A stretch of DNA of 64,000 nt from Candidatus Spyradenecus sp. (GCA_045535075.1 JAZSKX010000001.1:32001-96000), one strand, 5' to 3'. Positions 1 to 64,000 are shown, counted from the first letter of the stretch. Notes: generated by a model from the letters alone, not told the origin. Translations and numbers: made by a program.

Positions 1-78
1 TTAAGATGGACCGGATTTGCTTGGCGTTCCCGCGGCGAAGTTAATGCCCGTATGTTTTAAAACGGGCAATCTCCCTTG

Positions 79-738
79 CTAATCGCTTACGGCTTTCCCG
101 TAAATTTCAGCTTCGATGTAGTGATTTCCGCTATCGGATGTGTTCCCGCGAGAATAAAAACGAACATAGCGCCCGCACACGCCGGCAACGGGAATGATTT
201 TTCCCGCGTGCGTTTCGATATAGACTTTATCTTCTCCTTTCCCGAGCTTGGAGGAGTTGTCGAAATCGTTATTAAAAATTGTGTTTACGTTTTTTTTGAA
301 TTCGGGATCGTCCGAGATTTGAATAACGACATCGTGGTAAACGCGTTTTTGACGATGGTAATGCCAAAGCGCGATTGCAAAAATTTCTGCGGATTCTTCC
401 AAGTCGATTTGAATCCATTGGCGTCCCGGCGCGAGTTCGACTTCGTAGCCTTCGTCGCCGTCTTTGTCTCCGTCGGTCAGGTAAGCAAGTTCGCCGACAA
501 TCGGATTTTCGTCAGAGGCGGAAACCGGCTTGCCGAGAGCAATATTTTCGCAATTCTTCGGAATTTTAATCGGCGAATTTTGCGCGGGAGCGAGTTGTTC
601 TGCGGGAACGCGAATCGGTTGCGGCGTGCCGACCAGCGCGACCGGCGGCAATTCGATTTTCAGATCGACGAGTTCTTCTTCGCCGCAGAGTGTTCCCGCG
701 GAAAGTGCAAACAGGCTAAGGCAAGTAAAGATTTTCAT
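79..738 (-). CDS. Secreted discoidin/F5-8 type C (galactose-binding-like) domain protein
   Basis: Signal peptide MKIFTCLSLFALSAG at ATG 738. Motifs NIALGKPVSAS, LTDGD, QWIQIDL, GRYVRFY and EAEIYG are typical of F5/8 type C domains. Confidence 0.75.
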   Translation of the reverse strand: MKIFTCLSLFALSAGTLCGEEELVDLKIELPPVALVGTPQPIRVPAEQLAPAQNSPIKIPKNCENIALGKPVSASDENPIVGELAYLTDGDKDGDEGYEVELAPGRQWIQIDLEESAEIFAIALWHYHRQKRVYHDVVIQISDDPEFKKNVNTIFNNDFDNSSKLGKGEDKVYIETHAGKIIPVAGVCGRYVRFYSRGNTSDSGNHYIEAEIYGKAVSD

Positions 739-754
739 AGGTCTAATAATTGGA

Positions 755-1366
755 TTAAAGAGGATTTTTTGCTCCGGGAAGCAAATTGTAAATTGAAGTG
801 CCGATAATTTTTTCAAAATCCGATTTGATTTCAAAAAGTTTTTTCCACCGCGGCAACGAAGACGCGGGAACACCGTAGCGCAGGGCGACATCGACGATCC
901 GTGTTTCCAGGAAACAAAAACCGCTCGGCAATGCCAAGCCGTCGCAAAGTTGAACAAGCCGGTCGTAATCGTCGTATTCCGTTGTCTCCAAGAATGCTTT
1001 CAGGAAAGCAACATCGCTTGCGGGAATATCAAGTTTTCCGACTCCCATGGTAATTTCGGGAATCATAAACGCATGCGAGATGCAAACTTTCGCGGCTTGC
1101 GTCCAGCCGAAGTTCATGCAGTAGCGATAGCCGTCGAGCAGGTGCTTTTCCTGAAAAATGCCTTCTCGGCGGCCGATGTCGTGCATGAGCCCGAGGACAT
1201 ACGCCGTTTCCGCGCTTAAATGCGGAATTTTTTCGGCGATTTTTTCGCAGGCGAGAGCGCAAAAACGCGAATGGGAAACCCAAGCGCCCGGATTCATCGT
1301 TCCCGCAAGTTCCAGTTCGCGTTCGGCTCGTTCCCGCGTCGGAATATTTTGAAGGAACGAAGCCAT
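755..1366 (-). CDS. HD domain protein
   Basis: WVSHS...LGLMHDIGRR...H...H...LCD metal-binding pattern. Confidence 0.85.
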   Translation of the reverse strand: MASFLQNIPTRERAERELELAGTMNPGAWVSHSRFCALACEKIAEKIPHLSAETAYVLGLMHDIGRREGIFQEKHLLDGYRYCMNFGWTQAAKVCISHAFMIPEITMGVGKLDIPASDVAFLKAFLETTEYDDYDRLVQLCDGLALPSGFCFLETRIVDVALRYGVPASSLPRWKKLFEIKSDFEKIIGTSIYNLLPGAKNPL

Positions 1367-1401
1367 CGCAAGCCGGGAAATCAGGAACGTTCGCGGGAAC
1401 G

Positions 1402-1788
1402 TTAGAGACTCAAAATACGCGCTGCGGCAAGCGCGCAGTTCGACGGCTCAAGCACGGTAAGTACCGGCGTTTTTGAAGGCATTTGGAGCGTCGAGTTGAT
1501 GTTTACAAGAAAATCGAGCTTGTCCTTAAACGGCGGGCACGCGAGCACCGGCTTTTTGGCGTTGGCGGCAACGACACCGGAGAGCGCGTTGGAACGTCCC
1601 GCGATTGTGATGAAAAGCACTTTCGGCTCGTCGTCGTGCGCTTTGACGTAGTTGTAAACGCCGACCGGATCTTTGTGCGCGCTACGAACAAAATATTCAA
1701 ATTCAACGCCTTCCGCCTTCAAGCCTTCCGCGATTTTTTCCGCGTGCGGCATGTCGGATTCCGAACCCATCAAAATGTAAGCTTTCAT
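1402..1788 (-). CDS. purE: AIR carboxylase PurE, class II-like
   Basis: ILMGSESD, SAHK and AGRSNALSG...PVLACPP; directly downstream of purC. Confidence 0.9.
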   Translation of the reverse strand: MKAYILMGSESDMPHAEKIAEGLKAEGVEFEYFVRSAHKDPVGVYNYVKAHDDEPKVLFITIAGRSNALSGVVAANAKKPVLACPPFKDKLDFLVNINSTLQMPSKTPVLTVLEPSNCALAAARILSL

Positions 1789-1803
1789 GTAAAAATCCTT
1801 TCT

Positions 1804-11360: not shown

Positions 11361-11400
11361 AAAACGCGTTCCCGTGAAAACCACGGGAACGCGTTTTTTT
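11361..11400. terminator. Bidirectional terminator built from an inverted CGGGAAC pair
   Basis: AAAACGCGTTCCCGTG-AAAAC-CACGGGAACGCGTTTT between convergent genes. Confidence 0.85.
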
Positions 11401-12366: not shown

Positions 12367-12672
12367 TGATTGACTTCGGGCATATTGGGCGACGGCGGAG
12401 TGACGGGTCCCCGAAAACAACGTTCCCGCGAGAAAAATCACGGGAACGCCGACAAAGAAGCTTTGAAAATCCGAAAGCCGAAAGTGCTTTTACTTCTGCG
12501 GCTTTGAATTTTTCTCAAACTTTTTCTTCGCACAGCCGCAAGCACATCCGCACGCGGCGGAAGATTGCGAATCGCGCAGGTCGCGAATACGTTTGCGTAA
12601 ACGAAACGCCAGATACGTTCCCGCGCCGAGCACGAATATTGAAACTAAAATAAGGTCGAACATGACGTTGCG

Positions 12673-12790
12673 GTGGAAGAGGAGTGGAAAAGTGGAATAG
12701 TGGAAGAGTGGATTTTTTAGGATTCAATAATTTTACTTCCTCTAAAACTCTCGATTTAATCTATTCCACTCCTCTTCCACTATTCCACTA
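12673..12790. repeat. Inverted arrays of about 8-bp AGTGGAAN units
   Basis: GTGGAAGAGGAGTGGAA (12673-12689) is the exact reverse complement of 12764-12780, with extra tandem units on both arms. Abuts the feoB stop. Confidence 0.8.
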
Positions 12791-15130
12791 AAACAAACTT
12801 CCTATTTGGCAACAAAGCACTGCGCCGAGCCACGCGAGAAACGTCATTTGCGCCCAGGCGATTCCCGCCCATTTCCACGAAGATTCCCGCGCGATGACGA
12901 CGATTTCCGCCAAGCATTGTCCGCAAAGTGCGAAGAAAACCATAATGCCGATAATCACCGGAATCGTGAACACGGGCGAGCCGTCCGCGTGTGTTGTTTT
13001 TTCCATCGCCGCGTAAAGGTCTTCGGTTTCTTCGTCAACGTCGCCGCCGAGTTTATAGGTAATTCCGAGCGTCGAAACGATGAGCTCGCGTGCCGGGAAC
13101 GAGCCGAGTACGCCGACCGTAATGCGCCAGTCAAAACCGCAGGGCGCGAAAACCGGCTGGCAAAACTTGCCGAAACGCCCGATGTAGGAATCTTCCATCC
13201 ACGCGCCGTCGATGCGGTGTTCCAGTTCGCCGACAAGGGTTTCCTGCGCTTCGCTCGGCGCTTCTGCGCTTTCCGCCGCCGCGAGCATCTTTTCAAAATC
13301 CGCCGCGGGAACGTTCTGCGCCGCCGCCGCTTCGGCGACAAATTCCGCACGCGCCTGTTCCGCCGTTTCCTCGCTACGCGGGAAATACGTGAGGAACCAA
13401 ATTACGACCGACATCGCGAAAATAATCGTTCCCGCGCGCCGCGTGTACTCCCAGCCGCTTTGCCAAACGCGCAAGCCCACGTCGCGCAAGCGCGGCAACT
13501 GGTAGCGCGGCATTTCGAGGACAAACGGAGCCGCTTTCGATTTCAAAATAAATTTTGTGTAAACCCACGACACGGGAACGGCAACGAGCACGCCGACCAA
13601 ATACATACCGACAAACACCGCCGACGCGATACTTGCGGACGATTCCGCGTAGCTCGGATTCTGCGCAAGCACGCGTTGCAACACGCCGCACATCAGCACA
13701 TAAACCGGCATGCGCGCGCCGCAACTCATAAACGGCACGGCAAGAATCGTCGCCAAGCGCGTTTTCGGGTCTTCAATCGTGCGCGCGCCCATAATGCCGG
13801 GAATCCCGCACGCGTAGCCGGAAAGCATCGGCACGAAGCTCTTTCCGTTCAAGCCGCACCAACCGAAAAGTTTATCCATCAAAAACGCCGCCCGCGCCAT
13901 ATAGCCGGTCGATTCGAGCAACCCGAGGAAGAAAAACAAAATCAGAATTTGCGGCAGGAAAACCAGCACGCCGCCGACGCCCGCGATGATGCCGTCCACA
14001 ACAAGCGATTGGAACATCGGGCTGCCTTCAAGCTTCGCGCCGACACTTTCGCCGAGTGCGCCGAACCAGCCGTCGATCCAATCCATCGGGAACGCCGCCA
14101 GCGTGTAAATGCACCAGAAAACGCCCCACATCGCCGCGAAGAAGAACACGACGCCGAGCACGCGGTTGAGCAAAAGCTTGTCAAAGACGGACGTAAACGT
14201 CGTGCGCTCCTTTCCGTGGTGAAGCGTTCCCGCGAGAATTTCCTTAATAAACGCGTAGCGTTGAATCGCTTCCGTCGAATGCGGATTTTCGCCGGCTTCG
14301 CGGATACACGCGCGGGATTTTTTCAAAAGTTCGCCGATGTATTCAATGTCTTCGCCTTTGAGGCGATTTGCCACGAGCGAGGCAACGTCAAAAATAACGC
14401 GCTGAAGTTCCGCATCGCTCACGCGTTTGCTCACTTCCTCGGAAAGCCCGCCGCGCAAGGTTTCAAGCGCCTTGCGCGTTCCCGCGTTCCAAGAAACGGT
14501 TTTCATTTTGTTCCCGTTTTTCAAAACATCGGCAATCGCCTGCTTGAGCGCGTCGATGCCCTCGCCTTTGCGCGCGGAAACGGCAATCACCGGAATGCCG
14601 AGGCGTTCCCGCAACAAATCCGTGTTGACGGTGAGCCCGTCGCGGCGCGCCATGTCGATTTGGTTGAGCGCAAGCACCATCGGAATGCCGAGCTCGGCGA
14701 CCTGCGTCGCAAGAAACAAATTGCGTTGGAGATTGTTGACGTCAACGACGCAGACAATCGCGTCCGGTCGCGGTGTGCCTTTTTTCGCCAAGCGCCCGGA
14801 AAGCACGTCGATGACGACGCGCTCGTCCTTTGAAGTCGCCGCAAGCGAGTAAATACCGGGCAAATCCGTCAGCTCGATTTTTTCGCCGTGAAAAAGTTTG
14901 AGCGGTCCGGAATACTTGGTGACGGTTACGCCGGGATAATTGCCGACATGCTGACGCAAGCCGGTAAGCGAATTAAAAAGCGTCGTTTTCCCGGTATTGG
15001 CGTTCCCGACAAGGGCGACATTCGGCAATCCGCTCGGCTTCGCCGCGGGAACGGCTTCGGGAACGTCCGCATCTTCGCAGCAATGTTTTTTTCCGCAACA
15101 GCAGGAATTTTCCTCAGAATTTTTTTCCAT
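12788..15130 (-). CDS. feoB: Ferrous iron transporter FeoB
   Basis: GNANTGKT, VGNYPGVTV, DLPGIYSL GTPase motifs; GYMARAAFLMD, PFMSCGAR, FVLEMPRY. Confidence 0.97.
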   Translation of the reverse strand: MEKNSEENSCCCGKKHCCEDADVPEAVPAAKPSGLPNVALVGNANTGKTTLFNSLTGLRQHVGNYPGVTVTKYSGPLKLFHGEKIELTDLPGIYSLAATSKDERVVIDVLSGRLAKKGTPRPDAIVCVVDVNNLQRNLFLATQVAELGIPMVLALNQIDMARRDGLTVNTDLLRERLGIPVIAVSARKGEGIDALKQAIADVLKNGNKMKTVSWNAGTRKALETLRGGLSEEVSKRVSDAELQRVIFDVASLVANRLKGEDIEYIGELLKKSRACIREAGENPHSTEAIQRYAFIKEILAGTLHHGKERTTFTSVFDKLLLNRVLGVVFFFAAMWGVFWCIYTLAAFPMDWIDGWFGALGESVGAKLEGSPMFQSLVVDGIIAGVGGVLVFLPQILILFFFLGLLESTGYMARAAFLMDKLFGWCGLNGKSFVPMLSGYACGIPGIMGARTIEDPKTRLATILAVPFMSCGARMPVYVLMCGVLQRVLAQNPSYAESSASIASAVFVGMYLVGVLVAVPVSWVYTKFILKSKAAPFVLEMPRYQLPRLRDVGLRVWQSGWEYTRRAGTIIFAMSVVIWFLTYFPRSEETAEQARAEFVAEAAAAQNVPAADFEKMLAAAESAEAPSEAQETLVGELEHRIDGAWMEDSYIGRFGKFCQPVFAPCGFDWRITVGVLGSFPARELIVSTLGITYKLGGDVDEETEDLYAAMEKTTHADGSPVFTIPVIIGIMVFFALCGQCLAEIVVIARESSWKWAGIAWAQMTFLAWLGAVLCCQIGSLF

Positions 15131-15139
15131 ATTCTTAAT

Positions 15140-15324
15140 GCTTAGAGATTAAGGCTTAGAGCTTATAGGTAAGTGCTTTTAGTGAATAACGGATAGGGAA
15201 TAATTCCGTTCTAAGGTTTCTGCCTCCGGCAAAAACTTAAGGAGTGCATTATTCATTATTCATTATTCGTTATTCAATATTCATTAAGATGTTACCTCTA
15301 AGCCCTCAGCTCTCAGCTATCATC
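15140..15324. repeat. Heptamer-array inverted-repeat element (family copy 1) with a nested ATTATTC array
   Basis: Left arm GGCTTAGAGCTTATAGGTA, right arm TACCTCTAAGCCCTCAGCTCTCAGC. Inner GTGAATAAC...(ATTATTC)n. Lies between feoA and feoB. Confidence 0.75.
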
Positions 15325-15325
15325 T

Positions 15326-15556
15326 TTAATTTATTTTTTCGACCATGACGCGAGCGGCATCGGCGCGGCGAATCATCACTTTTTGAGAACAAAACGAAAT
15401 CGCAATCGGATCGCCCAGCGGCGCAACATGCGCGATGCGAACTTCTACGCCCGGCGTCAGCCCGAACGCCAAAAGACGCTGATAAACGGGATCGTCCGCG
15501 TCTAAATTTTGAACTTGGACACGCTGCCCGATTTTAGCTTCAGATAGAGGAATCAT
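15326..15556 (-). CDS. feoA: FeoA family protein
   Basis: RLLAFGLTPG...APLGDPIAI; directly upstream of feoB. Start ATG 15556. Confidence 0.93.
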   Translation of the reverse strand: MIPLSEAKIGQRVQVQNLDADDPVYQRLLAFGLTPGVEVRIAHVAPLGDPIAISFCSQKVMIRRADAARVMVEKIN

Positions 15557-15608
15557 GTGTTGAGAAAAACCGATTTCCTCACAATTTAAATTCAGAACGC
15601 ACATCTTT

Positions 15609-15627
15609 ACAAATGATTTTCATTTTC
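15609..15627 (-). promoter_or_regulatory. Fur box upstream of feoAB
   Basis: Minus strand GAAAATGAAAATCATTTGT matches GATAATGATAATCATTATC at 14/19. Confidence 0.7.
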
Positions 15628-15716
15628 AAAAACAAAATTCCGAAGCTCCGGGAACTACGGGAACGCGTATGGCAAACGGAGAAATTCCCCGACGTTCCCG
15701 GCACTTCAGAGGAAAA

Positions 15717-16544
15717 TCAGAAAATGTAACCGAATTGCCCGGCTACAATCACGTCGTCCGCAGAGGTAAACAGGCGCGGCGCGACGGTGAGCGTCAGCCA
15801 CCAGCTGTCCGCTTCATAGCAAACATTCGGCCCGGCGTAAAATTGGTCTTCGACAAAGCCGTTCCCGTCGTAAGCCAGCGTGTAAACGCCTTCGACGCCG
15901 ACGCGAAACCCGTCGCAAAGCGCATAAGACGCGCCGCCCGCCAGCGAATATTCCGTCGAATCAAACGTCGAATCCGTGCTCCCCGACGCGGGATCGCCTT
16001 TCACGGACGTGAACGCGACCGTCGGCGTGAACGCGAGTACCAAATCGTCGTTCAGGAAATTTTTTTGAAAAATCAAGCCGAGCTCAAACGTGATATCGCG
16101 CGCGCTGTTTTGGCTCGCGTCCGCAAACGCCCACGAAAAACCGCCGACGAGCGAAAGCCCGAACGGCGCGTTCTCGGCTTCCGGATCGAGAATCATATTT
16201 TTCAATCCGAAGGAAATGCCCGTGAAATTGAAATCGTTGACGCGGGATTCGCCGAGCTTACGCGCGTAGTGCCCGCTCACGTAATTGTGTCCGAAATCGA
16301 GCGACGCCGCGACTTCGAGCGTTTCCGTCGCACCGTAAGCAAACTCAAGCGCGGGAGCGGTGGAAACCGCCGTTCCGTGATTCGTCGCAATCGACGTTTC
16401 CCAATTGAGAGTTACTTCCAAATCTCCCAAACCCGCGGGAGCGGCATCGTCGGTAATCACAAAGATCCCGCCGAAAGCGTTAACTGCGGATAGAGAAGAG
16501 GCGGCGCAAAGCGCACCCAGTTTTAAGCGTTTGTTTTTTTTCAT
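15717..16544 (-). CDS. Putative iron-regulated outer-membrane beta-barrel protein (DUF6662-like)
   Basis: Signal peptide, amphipathic beta strands, C-terminal FGYIF. Co-oriented upstream of feoAB, with Fur boxes. Confidence 0.7.
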   Translation of the reverse strand: MKKNKRLKLGALCAASSLSAVNAFGGIFVITDDAAPAGLGDLEVTLNWETSIATNHGTAVSTAPALEFAYGATETLEVAASLDFGHNYVSGHYARKLGESRVNDFNFTGISFGLKNMILDPEAENAPFGLSLVGGFSWAFADASQNSARDITFELGLIFQKNFLNDDLVLAFTPTVAFTSVKGDPASGSTDSTFDSTEYSLAGGASYALCDGFRVGVEGVYTLAYDGNGFVEDQFYAGPNVCYEADSWWLTLTVAPRLFTSADDVIVAGQFGYIF

Positions 16545-16626: not shown

Positions 16627-16723
16627 AAAAATAAAATTTGACTCACGCGGATGAAGCAGGGTTCATGATTTCCGGGTTTTGTCATTTTGCAAAATGGCGA
16701 AACCCGAAAGTGTTTTGTTCCCG

Positions 16724-16740
16724 TTGGCACGGATTTTGCA
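16724..16740 (+). promoter_or_regulatory. Sigma54 (-24/-12) promoter of htpG
   Basis: TTGGCACGGATTTTGCA fits TGGCAC-N5-TTGCA, with exact GG-N10-GC spacing. Confidence 0.8.
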
Positions 16741-16756
16741 TTTTGTGTCGGTAATT

Positions 16757-18610
16757 ATGAGTAATTCCACGACACACACATTTCAGGCGGAAGTGAAGCA
16801 AGTGCTCGATATCGTCGCGCACTCGATTTACAAGGATAAAGATATTTTTCTGCGAGAGCTCGTTTCTAACGCGAGCGATGCGCTCGAAAAGCTCCGCTAC
16901 ACGCAACTGACGGAGAAAGACGTTTTTGAACCGACGCGCGAGCTCGCCGTTGAAGTTTCCACCGACGAAGCTGCGGGAACGCTCACTATCGCCGATTCCG
17001 GCATCGGGATGACGCGCGAAGAACTCGTCGAAAACCTCGGCACGATTGCGCACTCGGGCACAAAAGCGTTTTTGGAAAAAGTCAAAGAAAGCGGCGGCGC
17101 GAACGAAAACCTCATCGGGCAATTCGGCGTCGGGTTTTTCTCCGTTTTCATGGTTGCCGATGAAGTGAAATTTTACACGCGCACCTGGCGAGCCGAAGGT
17201 GAATCGCTTTGCTGGACGAGCGACGGGAACGGAAGCTACACGATTGAGGACGCGGGCGAAGCGCTCCCGCGCGGCTCGAAGCTCGTCATCAAACTCAAAA
17301 GCGACTTCAAGGATTTTTCAAAAAAAGACAAAGTTAAGGAAGTTCTCGAACGCTACTCGAAATACATCGCGTTCCCGCTCAAGCTCGACGGCGAAAAGCT
17401 CAACACGATGCAGGCGCTCTGGCTGAAAAACAAAAGCGACGTTACCGAGCAGGAATACAAGGATTTTTACAAATTCCAATGCCACGCGTGGGACGAACCG
17501 CAGGACTGGATGCATTTCGCCGCCGACGCGCCGCTTGCGATCAATTCCATTCTGTTTTTCCCGACGCACAATCCGGAAGCGATGGGCTTCGGGCGCGCCG
17601 TGCCGGAGGTTTCGCTTTACTGCCGCAAAGTGCTTATTGATTCCGAGCCGAAAAATCTGTTTCCCGAATGGCTTCGCTTCATGAAAGGCGTGGTCGATTC
17701 CGCCGACATTCCGCTGAACATTTCCCGCGAAACGTTGCAGGATTCGACGATTATTCAAAAACTCAATCGCGTGCTCACCAAGCGCGTGATTAAGCGTCTC
17801 GAAGAACGCGCGAAGAAAAAACCGGAAAAATTTGCCAAGTTCTGGCGCGACTTCGGAAATTACCTGCGCGAAGGCATCGCAACGGATTTCGACAACCGCG
17901 AAGCGCTCGCGCCGCTCTTCCGCTGTGAATCCTCAATTCTTGACGCGGGAACGCTCACGAGCCTGCCCGAGTACGTCGAGCGCATGAAGGATTCGCAGAA
18001 GGAAATTTACTACCTCGTCGGAGCCAACCGCGAAGCCATCGAGTCCGGACCGTATCTCGAAGCCTTTAAGGCGCGCGGCATCGAAGTGCTTTTCCTTTAC
18101 GACGGCGCGGACGATTACGTCATGGGGCAGCTCGGAACGTTTAAGGAAAAATCCATCGTTTCCGCCGATTCCGCCGATATCGAACTCGGCGACGTGCCGC
18201 AAACGGGAACGGGCGAGCCGCTTCCCGAAGAAAAAATGAAAACGCTTTGTAGTTGGTTTGCGGATACACTCGGCAAAGAAAAAGTTGCCGAATGCGCCAC
18301 GGGAACGCGCCTCGTCGATTCTCCCGCCGTCGCGCTCAATCCGGATAAATTCATGACGGCAACCATGCGCCGCATGATGAAGCTCATGTCGAAAGACGCG
18401 GGAACGCCGGACAAGCCCGTCGCCGTCAAAATCGAACTCAACCCGCGCCACCCGCTCGTACACAAGCTCGATACGCTCCGCGACGCGAACCCGGAACTGG
18501 CAAAGCTCATTGCCGAGCAGGTGCTCGATAACACGCTCATCGCTGCCGGCTTGCTCGACAATCCGCGCGGCATGACGCAACGCATTTACGAGCTTCTCGG
18601 AAAACTCTAA
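16757..18610 (+). CDS. htpG: Molecular chaperone HtpG (Hsp90)
   Basis: FLRELVSNASDA, DSGIGM, LGTIAHSGT, IGQFGVGFFS, PLNISRETLQ. Confidence 0.97.
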   Translation: MSNSTTHTFQAEVKQVLDIVAHSIYKDKDIFLRELVSNASDALEKLRYTQLTEKDVFEPTRELAVEVSTDEAAGTLTIADSGIGMTREELVENLGTIAHSGTKAFLEKVKESGGANENLIGQFGVGFFSVFMVADEVKFYTRTWRAEGESLCWTSDGNGSYTIEDAGEALPRGSKLVIKLKSDFKDFSKKDKVKEVLERYSKYIAFPLKLDGEKLNTMQALWLKNKSDVTEQEYKDFYKFQCHAWDEPQDWMHFAADAPLAINSILFFPTHNPEAMGFGRAVPEVSLYCRKVLIDSEPKNLFPEWLRFMKGVVDSADIPLNISRETLQDSTIIQKLNRVLTKRVIKRLEERAKKKPEKFAKFWRDFGNYLREGIATDFDNREALAPLFRCESSILDAGTLTSLPEYVERMKDSQKEIYYLVGANREAIESGPYLEAFKARGIEVLFLYDGADDYVMGQLGTFKEKSIVSADSADIELGDVPQTGTGEPLPEEKMKTLCSWFADTLGKEKVAECATGTRLVDSPAVALNPDKFMTATMRRMMKLMSKDAGTPDKPVAVKIELNPRHPLVHKLDTLRDANPELAKLIAEQVLDNTLIAAGLLDNPRGMTQRIYELLGKL

Positions 18611-18626
18611 TTAGAGAGGAGAAGAG

Positions 18627-19460: not shown

Positions 19461-19554
19461 GCGGGAAGTCTAAAGTTTAAGGACGCCGTCCAAAAGCAAT
19501 TTTTGGCGGCGTCCCTTGATTAATTTCGGCAATATCTGATTCTCGGCGCGGAAT

Positions 19555-21228
19555 TTACTGCTCCAGAATTTCGAGGATCTGCGGGAGCGATTTTTTGCCG
19601 AAGGCGATAATTTTGCCGTTTACGGCGATCGCGGGAACGCTCATGACGTTGTAGCGTTCGCGGATCGCGGGGAAGTGTGCGATGTCGAGGACATCGGTTG
19701 AAATTTCCGGATTTTCCAGCGCAATGCGTTGTGTCGCGACGACGACTTCCGGGCACTGCGTGCAGGAAAGCGAAACGAGCACTTCGATTTTGCGCGGTGC
19801 GAGCGCGCGGATGCGTTCCCGCGTGGCGTCGTCGAGCGCTTGTCCCGGACCGGCGGCGTTATAAAGAGCGATGATGAAGGAGTTGATTTCGTGTCCGCCG
19901 GGAACGCCGTGGAAACTTGCTCCGAGCGATTTTCCGTCGGCATCGCAAATCGTGACGCAAGGGCGAAGCGCAGTTGCGTTCGTTCCCGCGGGAATGCCGA
20001 AGCGTAATTCGATTTTATCGGAAAGTTCGGCGATTTCTTCGAGGAAGTTTTTCAGTTCGTCGGAAACGGCGTTGCTGTCGTCAAGTTCCGCCGCGAGGAC
20101 GATTTTATTTTCGAAGCGGGCGAAAACGCCTTGAAGTTGGGCGCGTGCGGCTTCGTCGAAGAATTTTCCGTCGTTGTCGGCGTTTTCGGAATCTTTTGCG
20201 GGAACGCTTTCCGTTGCAGGCGGTTTTTCGTGGGCGGCGGGCTTGCGGATTTCGCGGGAAGCACGCGTCGTGATGCCGGCAAGTTTGCGTGCGTCGGACA
20301 GATATTTTTCGAGCGCGGTGGCGGAAGTTGCGCCGTCGGCAACGGCGGTAACGACTTGGCGCAAACGTTTGCGGCGCAAATCGCCTGCGACGTAAACGCC
20401 GTCGATTCCGGTTTTCCCTTCTTCGTCACAAATCGCGAATCCGTCTTTGTCGATTCCGATTTTATCTTTGATTAAATCGCTTGCGGGAGCGTAGCCGACG
20501 AAGACGAAAACGCCGAAAGAGTCGCCGTCTTCCGCCTGAAATTCCTCCGTTTGCCCGGTTTTATTATTTTTCAAAATGGCACTTTCGGGTGCCGCGTTCC
20601 CGCGAATTTCCAAGAGTTCCGTGTTGAAACGTACTGAAATTTTCGGATTTGCCAAAACTTCCTCCGCAACGCTTTGCGCGCAGGAGAATTCGTCGCGACG
20701 CACGAGCATCGTAATTTTTTTTGCGTAGCGCGTGAGGAAAATCGCTTCTTCGCAGGCGGAAAATCCGCCGCCGATGACGAGCAATTCCTTCCCCGTAAAA
20801 AATTCTCCGTCGCAGGTTGCGCAATAGGCGACACCGCGCCCGCGGAATTCTGATTCCCCTTTGAATCCGACCGCGCGCGGACGCGCTCCCGCCGCGACGA
20901 CGATCCCGAGCGCACGAATGTCTCCGCGCGTTGTCTTGATGGTTTTGACCGTTCCCGTGAAATCGAGTTCCCGCGCTTCGGCCGTCAAAAATTCTGCTCC
21001 GAAATTTTCCGCCTGTTGCCGCATTGTTTCCGTGAGCGCTTTGCCGGAGGCGTGCAAAACGCCGGGGTAATTGACGACTTCGTCGGTGATGGTGATTTGC
21101 CCGCCGATGTTTTCGCGCTCGAGAACGAGCACGCTAAAACGCGCGCGGGAAAGGTAAATTGCGGCAGAGAGCCCGGCGGGACCGGCGCCGATAATGACGG
21201 CATCGTAGATGGAGTCGGAAAAATTCAT
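19555..21228 (-). CDS. ahpF: AhpF-like disulfide reductase (TrxR domain followed by C-terminal thioredoxin-like domains)
   Basis: IIGAGPAG, YCATCDG, FHGVPGGHEINSF, SLSCTQCPEVV; downstream of ahpC. Confidence 0.88.
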   Translation of the reverse strand: MNFSDSIYDAVIIGAGPAGLSAAIYLSRARFSVLVLERENIGGQITITDEVVNYPGVLHASGKALTETMRQQAENFGAEFLTAEARELDFTGTVKTIKTTRGDIRALGIVVAAGARPRAVGFKGESEFRGRGVAYCATCDGEFFTGKELLVIGGGFSACEEAIFLTRYAKKITMLVRRDEFSCAQSVAEEVLANPKISVRFNTELLEIRGNAAPESAILKNNKTGQTEEFQAEDGDSFGVFVFVGYAPASDLIKDKIGIDKDGFAICDEEGKTGIDGVYVAGDLRRKRLRQVVTAVADGATSATALEKYLSDARKLAGITTRASREIRKPAAHEKPPATESVPAKDSENADNDGKFFDEAARAQLQGVFARFENKIVLAAELDDSNAVSDELKNFLEEIAELSDKIELRFGIPAGTNATALRPCVTICDADGKSLGASFHGVPGGHEINSFIIALYNAAGPGQALDDATRERIRALAPRKIEVLVSLSCTQCPEVVVATQRIALENPEISTDVLDIAHFPAIRERYNVMSVPAIAVNGKIIAFGKKSLPQILEILEQ

Positions 21229-21256
21229 ATTTAGAAAAGGAAAGTGTTATTTTTTT

Positions 21257-21306
21257 AACGCGAAGAACGCAAAGAACTTTGTCGGTCCTTTGCGTTCTTT
21301 GCGTTT
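21257..21306. repeat. 9-mer tandem inverted-repeat element
   Basis: AACGCGAAGAACGCAAAG...CTTTGCGTTCTTTGCGTT between ahpC and ahpF. A degenerate relative lies at about 11421-11490. Confidence 0.6.
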
Positions 21307-21354
21307 TACAAAGAAGCGCATCGGAAATTCGGCGCTTCTTGTTCGGGTATTTAA

Positions 21355-21918
21355 TTACAAAGCGCCGACGAGGTCGAGGCTCGGCTTCAGCGTTTTGGCG
21401 CCGGGTTGCCATTTCGCCGGGCAAACTTCATCGCCGTGTTCGGCAACGAATTGCAACGCCTGCACGCGGCGGAAAAGTTCGTCCGCATTGCGTCCGATAT
21501 TGCCGGCAACGACTTCGTAGGAAACGATTTTGCCTTCCGGGTTGACGATGAAGGTTCCGCGTTCGGCGAGCCCAGCACTTTCAATCATCACGTCGAAATC
21601 GCGGGCGAGTGCGGCGGTCGGATCCGCGAGCATCGGATACTGGATTTTTTTGATGATTTTGGAAGCATCGTGCCACGCTTTGTGAACGAAGTGCGTGTCG
21701 CAGGAAACGGAGTAAATTTCGCAACCGATTTTCTTAAATTCTTCGTATTTGTTCGCGAGGTCTTCGAGCTCGGTCGGGCAGACGAAAGTGAAGTCCGCCG
21801 GATAGAAGAAAAACACGCTCCATTTGCCGAGAACGTCTTTCTTGGAGACGGGAACGAACTTGTTGTTCTGGTAGGATTGGACGGTGAAGTCCGCGATTTC
21901 TTTGTTAATCAATGACAT
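21355..21918 (-). CDS. ahpC: Alkyl hydroperoxide reductase subunit C
   Basis: FYPADFTFVCPTEL and EVCPAKW. Confidence 0.97.
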   Translation of the reverse strand: MSLINKEIADFTVQSYQNNKFVPVSKKDVLGKWSVFFFYPADFTFVCPTELEDLANKYEEFKKIGCEIYSVSCDTHFVHKAWHDASKIIKKIQYPMLADPTAALARDFDVMIESAGLAERGTFIVNPEGKIVSYEVVAGNIGRNADELFRRVQALQFVAEHGDEVCPAKWQPGAKTLKPSLDLVGAL

Positions 21919-22036
21919 GATTTTATTACTTTCTATTTATTTTATTGGTTTGGTTGGTGATTGATTGTCGGCAACTTTGGGATTGCCTCTGTTTTATGTC
22001 ATCTAATCTGCATAAAATTAAAAATTAAGTCAATAC

Positions 22037-22084: not shown

Positions 22085-22127
22085 TAAAAAAGCGTTCCCG
22101 TAGCGGAATTATTGCTGCGGGAACGCT
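22085..22127 (-). terminator. Terminator built from an inverted CGGGAAC pair
   Basis: AGCGTTCCCGTAGC...GCTGCGGGAACGCT with a minus-strand T tract, after the ABC gene. Confidence 0.85.
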
Positions 22128-23612: not shown

Positions 23613-23649
23613 AAAAAAAAGCGTTCCCGGAAACGTAACGCGGGAACGC
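23613..23649 (-). terminator. Terminator built from an inverted CGGGAAC pair
   Basis: A8-GCGTTCCCG...CGGGAACGC after the aldolase gene. Confidence 0.8.
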
Positions 23650-24947: not shown

Positions 24948-27900
24948 TTATCTTGCATCGAAGTATTTGGCTTGCGGGGAGGCGAAATAAAGTCCGCAGG
25001 CGGAAGCGGGCGGTGTCATCATAAACGATTCCGTCAGGTTGACTTCGATATTTTCTTCGACTTTAAGCAGGTCGAAAAGGGCGCGTTTTTGCGCATGATC
25101 CGGGAAAACGGGATAGCCGATTGCCGGGCGAATGCCTTTGTACTTTTCTGCAAAAAGTTCGTCGGTCGAAAGTTGTTCGTTGACGGAATAGCCCCAGAGT
25201 TCCCGACGGACTTTCCGGTGCAACCATTCGGAAGCGGCTTCGGCGATACGGTCGGCAAGCGCGCAGAGAATCAGCGACGAGTAATCGTCTCCGGCGGCGG
25301 AAAAATCTTCGGCAATCTTCTTGATTTCCTCTCCGGCGGTAACGGCAAATCCGCCGATCCAGTCGGGCGTTCCCGCGGGAGCGATAAAATCCGCAAGCGC
25401 AAGATTGGGCGTTCCCGCGCGTTGTTTCGTGAGCTGACGTGCCGGCTCGAAAACGCACTCGCCGTTGTTGACGACAATTTTTTCATTTTGGGAAAATGCC
25501 GGAAAAATACCGACGACTCCCGATGCGAACCGGACTCCGCGGGCAGGAAGCTCTTCCCAGATTTTTCGGGCATCGGCAAGGAGCTTTTCTGCGTCGGGCG
25601 ACTTGGCGGCGTTCCCGCGCATCTCAAAAACACTCAAAAGCGCGCTCCATGCGATCAGCGGGAAAAGTTCTCCGAGCGGAATTTCGATTTTTTGAACTCC
25701 GAGCCACGCAGGTTTTACCGGCGGATTTTTTTCGAAATCAATCCTCAGGCGATTGGCACGTGCGTCCTCAAGTGAAATGCGTTCCCGAGGCGTTTTCTCT
25801 GCGTAGTCTTTTCGGATTTTTTCGTAATCGGCCTGAAGTTCCCGAAGAAAAATCGTTTGCGTCGCTTCCGAAAAATAGTCACCGCAGGCACGCGAAATGC
25901 GCGAGGCGTCCGTCGTGTGAATGACCGAACCGGACGGGTAGAGCGGAGCGATTTTGATTGCTGTGTGTTCCCGTGAGGTCGTAGCGCCGCCGACAAAGAG
26001 CGGAATCGTGAATCCTTCGCGTTGCATTTCCGCCGCAACATGCGCCATCTCATCAAGCGAAGGCGTAATTAAACCGCTTAAAACAATCGCGTCCGCTTCG
26101 CGTTCCCGTGCCGTATCCAAAATCTTTTTACACGGCGTCATGACCCCGAGATCAATAATTTCGTAGCCGTTGCACGCAAGGACAATGGAAACGATATTTT
26201 TACCGATGTCGTGGACATCGCCTTTGACGGTTGCGATGACAATGCGCTTGCGATTTGCCGTGCGGCTCGCATCCGAGGTTTCTTCCATAAACGGCGTCAG
26301 CACTTCAACTGCGAGTTTCATGACGCGGGCGGATTTAACGACTTGCGGGAGAAACATTTTGCCGTCGCCGAAAAGTTGCCCGACCGTTCCCATGCCGGCC
26401 ATGAGCGGACCTTCGATGACGGCGAGCGGCGAACCGAGTTTTTCAAAAGCTTCCAAGACATCTTCGCGGATGTTGTCCGTGACGCCGTGAATCAGCGCGT
26501 ATTCCAAGCGCTCGCATACATTGCCCTGACGCACGGAATGCGTGTCCGGCGCGGGAACATCATTCTTTTTTACATTATATTTTCCCGCGATTTCGATTAG
26601 GCGGTCTGTTGCATCGGCGCGGCGGTTTAAGACGACATCTTCGACGCGCTCCCGCAATTCCTCCGGAATTTGTTCGTAAACTCCGAGCATCCCGGCGTTG
26701 ACGATTCCCATGTCCAACCCGGCGCGAATCGCATGAAAGAGAAAAACGGCGTGAATGGCTTCGCGAACGGGATTGTTCCCGCGAAACGCAAAAGAAACAT
26801 TCGAAATGCCGCCGGATGTTCGTGCGCCGGGACAACGTTTTTTGATTTCGGAAATCGCGCGAATGAAATCAATGCCGAATGCCGCGTCGCTTTCAAGCCC
26901 CGTGCCGACGGTCAAAACGTTCGGATCAAAAATAATGTCGCTCGCGGGAACGCCGGCCTGTTCCGTCAGAAGTTTGTAAGCGCGTTCGCAGATTTCGACC
27001 TTGCGCTCAAAGTCTGTCGCTTGTCCGTTTTCGTCAAACGCCATGACAATGATCGCCGCGCCGTAGCGCCGGCAACGCTTCGCGCGTTCGAGGAATTTTT
27101 CTTCGCCTTCTTTGAGAGAAATCGAGTTGACGATGCACTTTCCTTGAGCGCAACGTAAGCCGGCTTCGATAACTTCCCACTTGGACGAGTCAATCATGAG
27201 CGGAATGCGGGCGATTTCCGGCTCAGAGGCGAGCAGGTTTAAAAATCGTGTCATGCAGGCTTCGCCGTCGAGCAGAGCCTCATCGAAATTTACGTCAATA
27301 ATGTTGGCGCCGTTTTCCGCTTGTTGGCGTGCGATTGCAAGTGCGCCGCTCCAATCGTCTGCGGCGATGAGTTTTTTAAATTTCGGAGAACCGGTAACAT
27401 TACTGCGTTCGCCGACCAAGACGAAATCGGAGCTCGCGTTGCGCGTCGTCGAGCCGTCGAGCGGCGGGAAGACGAAGTGTTCCGTTCCCGCGAGAGCAAG
27501 CGTTTCCGGAAGCGCGGGAACGGCGCGCGGCGGAAAGGATTCTGTCGATCGGCGAATGGCACGAATGTGTTCCGGCGTGGTACCGCAGCAACCGCCGACG
27601 ATATTGAGCAAACCTTCCTGCGAAAATTCACGCAAATACATCGCTGTTTCTTCCGCCGTTTCCGAAAAGCCCGACGGCGCGAGCGGGTTCGGCAAACCCG
27701 CGTTCGGGTGGCAACTGATTGCACAGTCGGCGATTCGAGCCAAAGTTTCGATGTAAGGACGCATCGCGGGAGCGCCCAACGCGCAGTTCATGCCGATTGA
27801 AATCGGACGAATATGCCGCACGCTTTCCCAAAATGCCTCGACGGTTTGCCCCGAAAGCAGGCGCCCCGCCTTGTCTGCGACCGTTCCCGAAATCATCACG

Positions 27901-28559
27901 GGAACGCGTTCGCCGCGCGACTCGAAGATTTCCTGCATCGCAAAAATGGCGGCTTTGACATTGAGCGCGTCCGTTGCCGTTTCATAAAGAAGAACATCCG
28001 CTCCGGCTTCAAGCACGGCGAGAATTTGCTCGTGGTATGCCGCGCGCATGGCTTCGAAGCTCACGGCGCGTGCCGCAGGATTGCTGATGTCCGGCGACAT
28101 TGAAAGCATTTTCCCCGTCGGGCCGATTGATGCTGCGACGAAGCAACGTTGCGCGCGTTCCGGGTGCTCGACTTCGAAAGCATCGCGTTCCCGAACGGCG
28201 ATTTCGGTTGCCGCGCGAGCCATTGCCGCGACGTGTTCCTCTAGGCCGTATTCGTGCTGGGAAATGCGCGTTGAATTAAACGTATTCGTGGAAATGATGT
28301 CCGCACCGGCATCCAAATACGCACGATGTATTTTGCCCAAAATATCCGGGCGGGTCAGCGAAAGCACATCGTTGTCGCCCTTTAGATCAATCGGATGATC
28401 GCGGAAAAGCTCGCCGCGAAAATCAGCTTCCGTGAGGTTTTCCCGCTGAAGCATCGTTCCCGTGGCGCCGTCCAAATAAACAATGCGGGAGCGCATCAGC
28501 TCAATTAAACTTTGTCCGCGGGAACTAATCGGAAGTGCATCAAAATTCATTCGTATCAT
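24948..28559 (-). CDS. metH: Cobalamin-dependent methionine synthase
   Basis: [61 protein letters not shown]. Confidence 0.97.
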
Positions 28560-30039: not shown

Positions 30040-30066
30040 TTTCAGTGAAGTTTAAGACTTCCCAAG

Positions 30067-30103
30067 AGCGTTCCCGCGATTTTTGACGCGGGAACGCTTT
30101 CTT
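30067..30103. terminator. Terminator built from an inverted CGGGAAC pair
   Basis: AGCGTTCCCGCG...CGCGGGAACGCT-TTCTTT between convergent genes. Confidence 0.85.
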
Positions 30104-30128
30104 TAACCTTTAATCTTTAATCTCCCCT

Positions 30129-31328: not shown

Positions 31329-31532
31329 AAATGATTCGGTTAGATTTCTTTCGTTGATGCGATAAGCATAGCTGTTGTTCCCGTAAGAATTCAATTTTGT
31401 TTTATCGCAGAAGAAACTTGTCCGTGAAACGGACGTCGGCGAATCTGTTTACGAACGCGATGCGGATCAAAAAATCCGCATCAGATAAAAGCATCGGGTC
31501 GGAAATGTGCCGGCCGGTAAGCGGCAACTCGC

Positions 31533-35866: not shown

Positions 35867-35909
35867 ACAAAAAAGCGTTCCCGCGAAATTCACGGGAACG
35901 CTTTTTTGT
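35867..35909. terminator. Terminator built from an inverted CGGGAAC pair
   Basis: ACAAAAAAGCGTTCCCGCGAA-A-TTCACGGGAACGCTTTTTTGT. Confidence 0.88.
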
Positions 35910-42218: not shown

Positions 42219-42259
42219 AAAAAAGCGTTCCCGTGTTTTTTTCACGGGAACGCTTTTTT
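42219..42259 (+). terminator. Terminator built from an inverted CGGGAAC pair
   Basis: AAAAAAGCGTTCCCGTG-T7-CACGGGAACGCTTTTTT. Confidence 0.88.
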
Positions 42260-48522: not shown

Positions 48523-48561
48523 AAGCGTTCCCGTGATGCATTTCGCGGGAACGCTTTTTTT
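48523..48561 (+). terminator. Terminator built from an inverted CGGGAAC pair
   Basis: AAGCGTTCCCGTGA...TCGCGGGAACGCTTTTTTT. Confidence 0.88.
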
Positions 48562-61235: not shown

Positions 61236-61240
61236 GCGAC

Positions 61241-62007: not shown

Positions 62008-62132
62008 GCCGATTGAATCGGCATTGTCGCTTTTCCCGGACGCCGTCCGCCTTGCGAGGTGTTCCGGGAAAAGTGCTTTCCTCCCAAAAGTTCATCCGCC
62101 CACGCGTTGTCGTGGGATTTTTATTTTAATAT

Positions 62133-62771
62133 ATGACGGTGCTCGAAAAGGTTGCTCGTCTGTTTTCGGCTCGGAAAAATACCGAGGCGGTCGTGGTGCT
62201 TTCCCCGACGGGAAGTGTTCGCGGAGAAACAAAAATTGTTTGTGAGCTCTTCGAGAAAGGCTTGCAAGTGTATCACTTGCGCAAGCCCCGTTGGTCGATT
62301 GATCGTGTTCAGTCCTGGATAAAGTCGATTCCTAAGGTTTATCGTTCCCGCATTGTTCTTCATCAATTTCCGGAGCTGGTGGAGAAGTTCGCTTTGGGCG
62401 GATTTCATATTCATGCCGACGATTCTGTGCCGAGTTGCGTTCCCGTCGAAAAGCTCAGTGCTCGGTGTCAGCATTTTTCGGATTTGAAAAAGTGCGGGAA
62501 CAAGTTCCGTTGTCTGATGCTCGGACCGGTTTTCCCGAAAAAAGATCGCGACATTACCGTTCCCGCGAGGACAGAGCAGGAGTATGCTGCGATTGTCGCG
62601 TATTATCGCCAAAACGGCGGTGCGTGCAAAATTTTTGCCTTTGGCGGGGTCGAAGCCGATAATGTGAGGCGTTGTAAAAAAATGGGTTTCGACGGAGTTG
62701 CGGTTGTCGGTGCGATTTGGGAAAGCGCAGACGAAGTCGCCGCCTTTAAGAAGCTTTGCAGAAAATGGTAA
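62133..62771 (+). CDS. Thiamine phosphate synthase/TenI family protein
   Basis: YHLRKP, RIVLH, GGFH, CQHFSDL, LGPVF, FAFGGV, GFDGVAVVGAIW. Confidence 0.8.
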   Translation: MTVLEKVARLFSARKNTEAVVVLSPTGSVRGETKIVCELFEKGLQVYHLRKPRWSIDRVQSWIKSIPKVYRSRIVLHQFPELVEKFALGGFHIHADDSVPSCVPVEKLSARCQHFSDLKKCGNKFRCLMLGPVFPKKDRDITVPARTEQEYAAIVAYYRQNGGACKIFAFGGVEADNVRRCKKMGFDGVAVVGAIWESADEVAAFKKLCRKW

Positions 62772-63850
62772 GTTCGTCGGAAGCATTCCCGGAAATTAAG
62801 CCGAAGGCTCTTGTTATTGCGAGGCCGGACGATTTTGCTTCTGCCGTGCTTGCTTCCGCCGTGCTCAGGCCTGCGCGCGAAGCGCTCCCGCAAACACGCA
62901 TTTTTTTGCTGATTCATGCGAAATATGCCCCGCTTTACGTTGAACATCCGGCGCTTGACGGGATTTTCACCGTTTCTGATGATTCGACACCGGAGGAGCT
63001 TGCGGCGCATTTCAAGAAACAAAAAATTGATGCCGTTGTGCATCTTGCATTTTCGCAAAAGGTCGCCGACGCTGCTAAGCTTGCGGGCGTGGCGTTTAGC
63101 GTAGCGGAAGAGGGCGAGCACGACGGGAGCGTTAGCTTGGAGATTTTGCGCCCGAAAACTCGTCGCGGCGGAAAGCATCCGGCGTTTCGCAATTTTGATA
63201 TTTTGCGTCCGTTCGGGATTGTCGTTCCCGAGCATCCTGAAATTGAGCTTTCCGTTCACCGAGACGCACATAAGGAAATTTTCGGTGAAATCGGGAAGCA
63301 ATACGGGCTTGCGGATCAAAGCGATTATGCGGTTTTCAGCCTTGATCAAAATCGTTGCGGGCATCAAATCAATGCGTCTGTTTTTTCGAAAACCGCTGAA
63401 TGGCTTACGCGTTTTGCAAAGATTCCGATTCTTGTTCTCGGGGATCCGGTCCATTCCGAAAATTTTCTTCGGTTTAGCCGGAATTCTCACGGTGCGCACG
63501 TCATCGATTTGCGCGGGAAGACAAGCCCTGCCGAAGATGCCTGGCTTATTGACAATGCTCGGATTTGTTTTTCCGGCGAGAATGCGTACGCGTATCTTGC
63601 CGTTGCCATGGAATGTCCGCTGATTGCGCTTTTTATCGATTTTTCCGGAGACCGTTGGTTCCCGCTCGGGCATCTTGCCACTAATATTTTTACGGGAGCG
63701 CACCGTTTGCCTTTCGAGCCGGCGTTTCTTTACAATTATCGGGCTTCGCGTTCTTTTAAAATCGAGAAAATCGCGTCTGCGCTTCGTTTTTCCCTCGCGC
63801 TCAGCAACGAGGATGTAAGAGAAACGAGAATTAAAAGTAGCGAGCTTTAA
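62765..63850 (+). CDS. Glycosyltransferase family 9 (heptosyltransferase-like)
   Basis: LVIARPDDFASAVLA, HPALD, IDLRGKTS, YLAVAMECPLIALF, RWFPLG. Confidence 0.82.
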   Translation: MVSSSEAFPEIKPKALVIARPDDFASAVLASAVLRPAREALPQTRIFLLIHAKYAPLYVEHPALDGIFTVSDDSTPEELAAHFKKQKIDAVVHLAFSQKVADAAKLAGVAFSVAEEGEHDGSVSLEILRPKTRRGGKHPAFRNFDILRPFGIVVPEHPEIELSVHRDAHKEIFGEIGKQYGLADQSDYAVFSLDQNRCGHQINASVFSKTAEWLTRFAKIPILVLGDPVHSENFLRFSRNSHGAHVIDLRGKTSPAEDAWLIDNARICFSGENAYAYLAVAMECPLIALFIDFSGDRWFPLGHLATNIFTGAHRLPFEPAFLYNYRASRSFKIEKIASALRFSLALSNEDVRETRIKSSEL

Positions 63851-63860
63851 TTCCGCATAC

Positions 63861-63892
63861 TAAAAACTCCCGCTTTCGTGCGGGAGTTTTTA
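63861..63892. terminator. Bidirectional terminator
   Basis: TAAAAACTCCCGC-TTTCGT-GCGGGAGTTTTTA. Confidence 0.85.
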
Positions 63893-63932
63893 TTTGTGCC
63901 GTTCCCGTGAAAGCGAAACGGTATTTACTGTT

Positions 63933-64000
63933 TTATTTTCGCCGACGGCGGATAGCGACGAGCGCCAAAATTCCCGTTCCCGCGATAAATCCGAACGCTG
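63933..64000 (-). CDS. 3' end of a probable fourth PEP-CTERM protein (truncated by the window edge)
   Basis: Minus strand reads AFGFIAGTGILALVAIRRRRK-stop, matching the other PEP-CTERM tails. Confidence 0.75.
   Translation of the reverse strand, partial: AFGFIAGTGILALVAIRRRRK

Follow-up and report, generated by a model that had tools for sequence, protein, structure and literature searches.

The 64-kb stretch of DNA analyzed here (Candidatus Spyradenecus sp., JAZSKX010000001.1:32001-96000, which is G000:C11:32001-96000 in our numbering and is called the window below) is saturated with a short word, RCGGGAACG, whose strict core is CGGGAAC. The sequence evidence suggests, with somewhat better than even confidence, that this word is a genus-specific tag of the DNA uptake sequence (DUS) type. 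On balance we also lean towards regarding the tag as a functional analogue of the DUS of the Neisseriaceae and the uptake signal sequence (USS) of the Pasteurellaceae. All of the sequence-level hallmarks of DUS and USS that we tested were found.

The window contains 244 copies of the core (CGGGAAC or its complement GTTCCCG), compared with 14.4 +/- 3.9 in 100 dinucleotide-preserving shuffles, the richest of which had 27 copies and none of which reached 244. The core extends to CGGGAACG in 196 cases, to GCGGGAACG in 111 and to ACGGGAACG in 57; 206 copies lie within open reading frame (ORF) calls and 38 between ORFs. A first-pass annotation of the window had reported about 45 copies in the first 10 kb and described a non-palindromic word that is about equally common on both strands and recurs to the end of the stretch. 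The recount gave exactly 45 copies in the first 10 kb, 121 on the plus and 123 on the minus strand for the entire window, and 24 to 39 copies in every 8 kb (33, 39, 30, 31, 28, 28, 24 and 31 in succession).

In the whole genome (G000, 1,949,087 bp in 18 contigs, 52% G+C), the core was found 6,528 times, 3,169 times on the plus and 3,359 times on the minus strand, corresponding to one copy per 299 bp, 3.35 copies per kb, or 2.3% of all bases. CGGGAAC is the most frequent 7-mer of this genome, and the most frequent 8-, 9- and 10-mers are CGGGAACG (5,159 copies), GCGGGAACG (3,244) and GCGGGAACGC (1,614); RCGGGAACG as a whole accounts for 3,244 + 1,266 copies. Order-0 expectations are 265 for the 7-mer, 69 for the 8-mer and about 18 per 9-mer, and an order-3 Markov model predicts 1,324 copies of the 7-mer. 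The logo over all copies reads y-C-R-CGGGAAC-G-c, with seven strict core positions, G (62%) or A (24%) at position -1, G (79%) at position +8, weak preferences at positions -3, -2 and +9, and no signal beyond three bases on either side. Among the one-base variants of GCGGGAACGC, changes within the core reduced the count from 1,614 to between 0 and 192 copies, and tolerance was confined to the outer positions. The word is short and sharply defined, and it is not part of a longer repeat.

According to our own greedy ORF calls, which are approximate (1,590 ORFs covering 91% of the genome), 5,736 copies (88% of the total) are genic. In principle, the word could be an artefact of codon usage, of recurrent peptides or of base composition, and some reading frames do dominate, with 1,686 copies encoding AGT or TGT and 1,412 encoding VPA or VPV. 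However, only 965 +/- 34 genic copies remained when synonymous codons were reshuffled within each gene so that the protein was kept, and only 391 +/- 18 when codons were permuted within genes (20 shuffles each). All six frames are occupied, the sense frames with 713, 1,686 and 994 copies (peptides RER, A/TGT and xGN) and the antisense frames with 1,412, 469 and 454 copies (VPA/V, RSR and xFP), and the density between genes (4.73 per kb) is higher than in coding sequence (3.22 per kb). The recurrent peptides in several frames that the first-pass annotation had listed were seen again, and its statement that the word is not a protein motif holds, since the excess survives both nulls. Furthermore, the word is the same at loci with 52% and 68% G+C, and it is absent from sister genera that have the same genes. 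An explanation by codons, peptides or composition is excluded, and we assign it a negligible probability.

The spacing of the copies is near-exponential (coefficient of variation 1.09), with a moderate excess at 100-400 bp, and we make no claim of regular spacing. Gaps of more than 2 kb number 28 against 7 expected, an excess that stems from the islands described below. As a proxy for the replichores we used the sign of the GC skew in 86 bins of 20 kb, a proxy in which origin and terminus are unmapped. Word orientation per bin correlated with GC skew (r = 0.44) and to the same extent with gene-strand bias (r = 0.46), and in bins with an absolute GC skew above 0.05 the two orientations stood at 1,795:1,445 (55:45). 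Like Chi and the KOPS/AIMS words, for which DNA-tracking enzymes are the readers, the word is short, asymmetric and over-represented, and a RecB/AddA-like ORF is present in G000. Chi and KOPS words, however, show a strong bias towards one orientation relative to replication and are spaced several kb apart, whereas the word here has an orientation of 55:45 and recurs every 300 bp. The polarity of the word is far from a strong polarity of the Chi/KOPS type, and the replichore check that had been suggested with the first-pass annotation thus revealed only a weak bias.

Copies of the word frequently form inverted pairs. At distances of 8-40 bp, the arrangement GTTCCCG-loop-CGGGAAC was found 243 times (143 of them intergenic), against 87 pairs in the opposite arrangement. 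A typical pair reads aaaaaGCGTTCCCG-N6-13-CGGGAACGCttttt and has the shape of a bidirectional intrinsic terminator. We defined terminator-like sites, which are predicted terminators, as intergenic perfect GC-rich stems of at least 6 bp followed by T4. The word was present in both arms of 159 of the 332 such sites (48%), and the favored arrangement prevailed over the other by 155 to 4, in agreement with the pairing in terminators that the first-pass annotation had named as characteristic of DUS and USS. In the available part of TerminatorNet (PMC13020248), USS and DUS are found in up to 22% of terminators in Pasteurellaceae and up to 37% in Neisseriaceae, and these two are the only families named there as having DUS or USS.

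The frequency of these hairpins and the preference for one pair arrangement, both among close pairs and at terminator-like sites, would also be expected if the word were a terminator stem or a repeat of the REP or MITE type that spreads by copying and leaves genic copies as debris. Against this, 88% of the copies are single and genic, nothing is conserved beyond three bases on either side of the core, alignments of orthologues (see below) show point substitution at codons rather than insertion, and the same positions are retained across the genus. The same features (absence of flanking signal, genic location and origin by point substitution) distinguish the word from known REP and MITE repeats. 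The idea of a repeat, or of a by-product of terminators, is largely refuted, and we consider it very improbable.

The window holds eight of these hairpins. GTTCCCG-N9-CGGGAAC at 11368..11390, downstream of the PanC region, is flanked by A-rich sequence on the left and by a run of T on the right and resembles a bidirectional intrinsic terminator. GTTCCCG-N12-CGGGAAC at 12422..12447 falls into a short ORF call but is probably intergenic, 3' of feoB. Two further inverted pairs are intergenic, aaaaaaGCGTTCCCG-N17-CGGGAACGC at 22094..22124 and aaaaaaaaGCGTTCCCG-N11-CGGGAACGC at 23623..23647, and GCGTTCCCG-N12-CGGGAACGCttt at 30070..30095 lies in the spacer between two convergent genes. At 35877..35899, the terminator-like pair aaaaaaGCGTTCCCG-N9-CGGGAACGCtttttt is covered by an ORF call that probably overruns. 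The last two are intergenic and follow a GH2 gene (aaaaaaGCGTTCCCG-N11-CGGGAACGCtttttt, 42227..42251) and an MFS transporter gene (GCGTTCCCG-N12-CGGGAACGCttttttt, 48527..48552).

The enrichment is specific for the genus of the window, a Candidatus Spyradosoma-like Opitutia genus of the animal gut. GCGGGAACG occurred 340 to 5,581 times in each of the 19 sampled genomes of this genus. In 102 genomes from four other genera of the family it was found 9 to 176 times, approximately as often as the reversed-word control, and across 12 other families of the order 0 to 196 times. ComEC relatives with 51-54% identity came from Candidatus Spyradosoma sp. records, which the NCBI taxonomy places in the Opitutia, Verrucomicrobiota, and two 5.7-kb ComEC loci from these records contained 22 and 25 core copies. 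When orthologous loci of the genus (from G004 and from the Candidatus Spyradosoma records) were compared with G000, local G+C rose from 52% to 67-68% and the word remained unchanged. Saturating words of their own were not seen in 6.6-kb loci of the four sister genera, samples that are too small to exclude them.

Within the genus, the density of the word varies about 16-fold. It is low in G001, G002 and G013 (about 360 copies per Mb) and in G014 (179 per Mb), and ranges from 1,660 to 3,280 per Mb in the other genomes. A single-gene htpG tree placed the low-density species within high-density clades, which cannot settle whether low density is secondary, because the genus shows gene exchange. The copies in G001 are distributed uniformly (0.8-1.3 per kb) and are not concentrated in G000-like segments, and an origin of these copies by import was therefore rejected.

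The genes of the window are ordinary housekeeping genes, encoding ATCase, PanC, FeoB, HtpG, MetH, AcrB and others, and two of them were compared with their orthologues. The metH gene (24948..28559, minus strand, 1,203 aa) contains 18 copies of the word in G000, compared with 9 in G004, 4 in G001, and 1, 0, 2 and 1 in the four sister genera. In the codon alignment, the copies are at alignable positions and differ from the corresponding non-copies by one to a few substitutions. These may be synonymous, as in an SGT tripeptide written TCGGGCACA or TCGGGAACG, or change the protein (MGT to TGT, RGA to RGN, EGT to AGT, REM to RER, DAT to VPA). Alignment with relatives that lack the word, a check proposed in the first-pass annotation, thus accounts for the metH copies by point substitution. 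The MetH query had matches in G001, G004 and the four sister genera and none in G003, G007, G009 and G014, and the presence of B12-dependent methionine synthase may vary within the genus.

The htpG gene (16679..18610, plus strand), with eight copies of the word, could be aligned for all 19 genomes. Two of the copy positions are common to 17 of the 19 genomes and three more to 14-16, and the rest are lineage-specific. The motif 7-mers of G000 recurred unchanged in 65% of 17 other species, whereas the figure for all 7-mers of the gene was 40% (permutation P = 0.007, for this one gene), and in low-density species the corresponding sites differ from the word by 1-3 changes, most of them synonymous. 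Taken together, the patterns in the metH and htpG alignments indicate that the word is written and maintained at the DNA level, beyond what is explained by protein constraint. One in-frame TGA is found ahead of the conserved start in each of the htpG matches from G013 and G002; this part is probably upstream non-coding sequence that was read through.

Some regions of the genome are poor in the word. The two largest are Mu-like transposable prophages, one at C16:185-220 kb with 27 copies in 35 kb, the other at C8:20-35 kb with 14 copies in 15 kb. They encode Gam, MuA- and MuB-like proteins, terminase, portal and DNA methyltransferases, and have 0.8-0.9 copies per kb against 3.35 genome-wide. 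Many of the remaining gaps are low-GC, motif-free islands with restriction-modification genes. In or adjoining such islands we found genes for an MmeI-family type IIG enzyme (G000:C2:15779-18766), three Type I HsdM proteins (C9:66157-67770, C10:5047-6636 and C12:72737-74275) and a C5 methyltransferase (C12:44670-46520). A scan of the IMG/VR collection for the hairpin pattern returned 25 contigs with one hairpin each and none that was saturated; phages of this genus may be absent from that collection.

The methyltransferases bear on the alternative, also raised in the first-pass annotation, that the word is HIP1-like and driven by methylation or repair, through a genus-wide methyltransferase or mismatch-correcting enzyme that targets it, with enrichment by biased repair or by selection for modification sites, or, in a variant, through phosphorothioation at GAAC/GTTC. 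HIP1 (GCGATCGC, cyanobacteria), as the available part of the source describes it, is likewise an 8-base word that is very dense, genic and lineage-wide. The genome does have an MmeI-family enzyme, three HsdM, one C5 and two prophage methyltransferases; enzymes of the MmeI family read asymmetric sites of 6-8 bases, and the core of the word includes GAAC/GTTC, the site of Dnd phosphorothioation. However, HIP1 is a palindrome and the target of dedicated methyltransferases, whereas the word here is asymmetric and no genus-wide methyltransferase was found among those profiled, namely the MmeI-like one. The MmeI-like gene was detected in 10 of the 19 genomes (35-80% identity) and not in the high-density genomes G007, G016, G003, G006, G008, G009 and G012, and because of this patchy distribution the enzyme was rejected as reader of the word (of the several methyltransferases, it was the only one profiled). 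The methyltransferase genes of the chromosome are found within or beside low-GC, motif-poor islands of a kind typical of strain-specific acquisition, and restriction targets are usually avoided rather than enriched 20-fold. DndC (TIGR03183) had no match at E<=0.01, and Dnd phosphorothioation was set aside on the basis of this gene, the one dnd gene searched. Altogether, we regard an origin by methylation or repair as improbable.

Comparison of G000 with a second species revealed extensive gene exchange. We compared 400 kb of the G016 genome with the entire G000 genome, and 58% could be aligned. Identity was bimodal, with 36% of the aligned bases at 96-100%, 57% at 65-80% and almost none between 85% and 96%; by comparison, identity of G001 and G014 to G000 was unimodal. 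About a fifth of one genome would be near-identical to that of another species. Both classes contain single-copy core genes, the low class SecA (78%), LepA (80.5%), ClpB (80%), Mfd (75%), RNase R (71%) and Dxs (70%), the high class AtpD (98.2%), CarB (98.9%), ProS (98.0%) and HrpB (98.9%).

The high-identity class consists of 41 patches of 357-6,562 bp (median 1.7 kb). Of their 82 ends, 66% fall no more than 30 bp from a start or stop codon, compared with 8% of random positions, and the junctions are right at the ATG or just past the stop, with unrelated DNA outside. Patches that are neighbors in G016 were also neighbors in G000 in only 2 of 10 pairs. We interpret these sequence patterns as the outcome of recent allelic replacement, in which short pieces of imported DNA would have recombined homologously between species that are divergent and lack synteny, with replacement tracts reaching the limits of homology. 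Exchange on the scale of single genes is what frequent transformation would be expected to produce.

Four patches are located in the window: the feoB block (12414..16489, 97% identical to G016, with flanks of no or much lower similarity), htpG (16724..18616, 99%, exactly the coding sequence, with unrelated flanks), AhpF-like and AhpC genes (19554..21943, 98%, next to a ThiF-family gene with 75%), and a gene of the saccharopine dehydrogenase family (30064..31331, 98%). The genes next to htpG differ in nearly every one of the 19 genomes, even in G007 and G016, where htpG itself is 95-99% identical, and similarity at the htpG loci begins and ends with the coding sequence. In order to check the arrangement, we used contigs from public animal-gut and faeces runs of different studies. 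In run X1, one contig of 43,958 bp covers window positions 12001-22000 at about 98%. The patches 12414-16489, 16724-18616 and 19554-21943 are in three separate contigs of approximately 10-28 kb in runs X6 and X12, where the uncovered parts of the 10-kb stretch were not counted as absence. The mosaic is not an assembly artefact, because contigs from independent runs show both arrangements. At 15248-15288, feoB and the gene that follows it are separated by a simple AT-rich repeat of heptamer-like units (ATTCATT/ATTATTC), which attracts many short, unrelated contigs of the public runs and causes spikes in depth.

If the word is an uptake tag, a part of the type IV pilus or competence apparatus at the surface or in the periplasm would act as a receptor that prefers to bind double-stranded DNA bearing the word. 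Bound DNA would be pulled through the secretin, one strand would enter via ComEC, DprA would load it onto RecA, and ComM would assist integration. Tagged fragments would be taken up and recombined more often than others, so that point mutations creating the word would spread and those destroying it would be replaced, a form of molecular drive by which the word would accumulate wherever protein function tolerates it. Inverted pairs would then have been recruited secondarily as intrinsic terminators. The parts of this proposal that we infer are the bias of uptake, the receptor, and transformation as the route of exchange.

Most of the required machinery was found. ComEC is encoded by a 570-aa ORF that shares a contig with the window and lies about 26.5 kb upstream of it, and G000 also has genes for DprA, ComM/YifB and a secretin of 992 aa. 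Genes for two PilB/MshE-like ATPases, a third ATPase of the T2SSE family and PilC are present and adjoin RecD2. Among seven pilin-like ORFs with an N_methyl domain, four form a single operon between RuvX and a pseudouridine synthase. Across the genus, ComEC was detected in 19 of 19 genomes, the secretin in 18 of 19 and homologues of the pilin operon in 19 of 19. The four-gene minor-pilin operon (G000:C1:259100-262400, minus strand) is syntenic and 78-79% identical in G001, G002 and G013; in G016 and G007 it has about 65% identity and another genomic place, despite the 96-99% identity of htpG and feoB to those of G000. The long secretin of about 990 aa is present in 18 of the 19 genomes and is the only one in G000, and seven genomes (G001, G002, G004, G012, G013, G014 and G018) have an additional secretin gene of about 790 aa. 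The window itself encodes a 386-aa DNA/RNA non-specific endonuclease (Endonuclease_NS, 60140-61300, minus strand); secreted or periplasmic nucleases of this kind can aid or limit DNA uptake in other bacteria.

Several observations weigh against an uptake tag. The competence genes that the first-pass annotation had suggested looking for were only partly found: ComEC, DprA and pilin-like genes are present, but HHH_3 and TIGR00426, used to look for ComEA, gave no match over the cut-off other than an 805-aa Tex-like ORF, and ComP_DUS (PF16732) had no match in the genome at E<=1. The six pilin-like proteins that were analyzed are all acidic (pI 4.4-5.9), and there is for this reason no obvious DNA-binding pilin among them. 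The proposal of a sequence-specific transformation system of the lineage's own is thus partly supported, in that the DUS/USS hallmarks and most of the machinery were found, but not ComEA, a receptor of the ComP_DUS type or a basic pilin. ComEC, DprA and ComM are, moreover, common in bacteria that are not known as transformable, as our control rows showed. The low-density species, too, retain ComEC, secretin and pilin operon, and loss of competence genes was therefore rejected as the cause of low density; nothing that we found explains the 16-fold range. In samples of 87 kb from G014 and 119 kb from G001, the same word is present at lower density, and no dialect of it was seen.

The patches demonstrate recombination and not its route. 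Word density is 4.0 per kb in patches and 3.1-3.3 per kb elsewhere, and 18% of patch ends are within 15 bp of a word, compared with 8-10% for random positions and gene boundaries, an excess so weak that we do not tie patch ends to the word. With 88% of the copies in coding sequence and a density several times that quoted for DUS and USS, the word is also no simple copy of the known cases. Finally, a literature search of titles and abstracts found neither natural transformation nor uptake sequences reported for Verrucomicrobiota, and no paper on these words in the sense of uptake sequences.

The main rival explanation is another reader that tracks DNA across the genome. The word would then be an orientation-independent, Chi-like signal in recombination or repair for an enzyme of the AddAB/RecBCD type, a self-marker in defence, or a nucleoid-protein site, maintained by selection rather than by uptake bias. 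A 1,107-aa ORF of the PDDEXK helicase-nuclease type is present in the genome, RecD2 adjoins the pilus genes, and recombination in the genus is heavy. The search for an uptake receptor came out empty, conservation of positions fits selection as well as drive, and the scarcity of the word in prophages fits any self-marker. On the other side, the orientation of about 55:45 relative to GC skew is equalled by gene-strand bias, and known nucleoid-protein sites are not strict 7-mers that occupy six frames at a cost in amino acids. To our knowledge, no Chi or KOPS word comes near a density of one copy per 300 bp, and no orientation-free DNA-tracking system of such a kind is known. We consider such a reader unlikely, but clearly more credible than the alternatives of methylation, repeat or composition, and prefer the uptake tag.

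Resemblance to the DUS of Neisseriaceae, which is read by the minor pilin ComP, is extensive. Both are short, non-palindromic words that occur thousands of times, on either strand and both within and between genes; both form terminator pairs, are shared by related species and make up about 2% of the chromosome, and both are found together with type IV pilus parts, ComEC, DprA and ComM. The word differs from DUS in that it belongs to another phylum, is unrelated in sequence, about 3-4 times denser and 88% coding, with a core of seven strict and two partial bases instead of 10-12, and in that no ComP_DUS domain, no ComEA and, in 87 + 119 kb, no dialects were seen. With the USS of Pasteurellaceae, whose predicted receptor is the minor pilin ComN, it shares the core of about nine bases, the entry into genes by point mutation in several frames with effects on peptides, the use in terminators and, in G000, the four-gene minor-pilin operon; H. 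influenzae has comNOPQ. The AT-rich flanking segments of USS are missing here, the pilin-like proteins are acidic, and word and lineage are unrelated.

According to the available part of a 2025 preprint (10.1101/2025.10.24.684340), DUS and USS comprise 9-10 bases, have hundreds to thousands of copies that occupy up to about 2% of the chromosome, and form inverted repeats in terminators, with ComP and a predicted ComN as receptors. As far as the available parts of this preprint and of PMC13020248 go, sequence-specific uptake is recognized only in the two proteobacterial families Neisseriaceae and Pasteurellaceae. If the word of the window is an uptake tag, it would add a new phylum and a new word without ComP, denser than any so far and located mostly in coding sequence. 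More tentatively, and with less than even confidence, we propose that uptake-sequence systems extend beyond the Proteobacteria, that Verrucomicrobiota gained one by independent evolution and use a receptor that is not related to ComP, and that the tag holds together a genus-wide gene pool in which whole coding sequences are swapped across non-syntenic backbones of 65-80% identity.

An uptake tag in this genus would be the third, independent case and the first of these in another phylum, making the tagging of self-DNA a recurrent solution, and a new receptor would await discovery, since ComP is absent here. It would also provide the densest known example for models of molecular drive versus selection, with a 16-fold range of density inside one genus. 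The patches of 97-99% identity that are bounded by coding sequences bear on how species boundaries and core-genome phylogenies are read in this group. If the proposal is true, it suggests that uncultured or barely cultured Verrucomicrobiota of the gut are naturally transformable and may be genetically tractable with tagged DNA.

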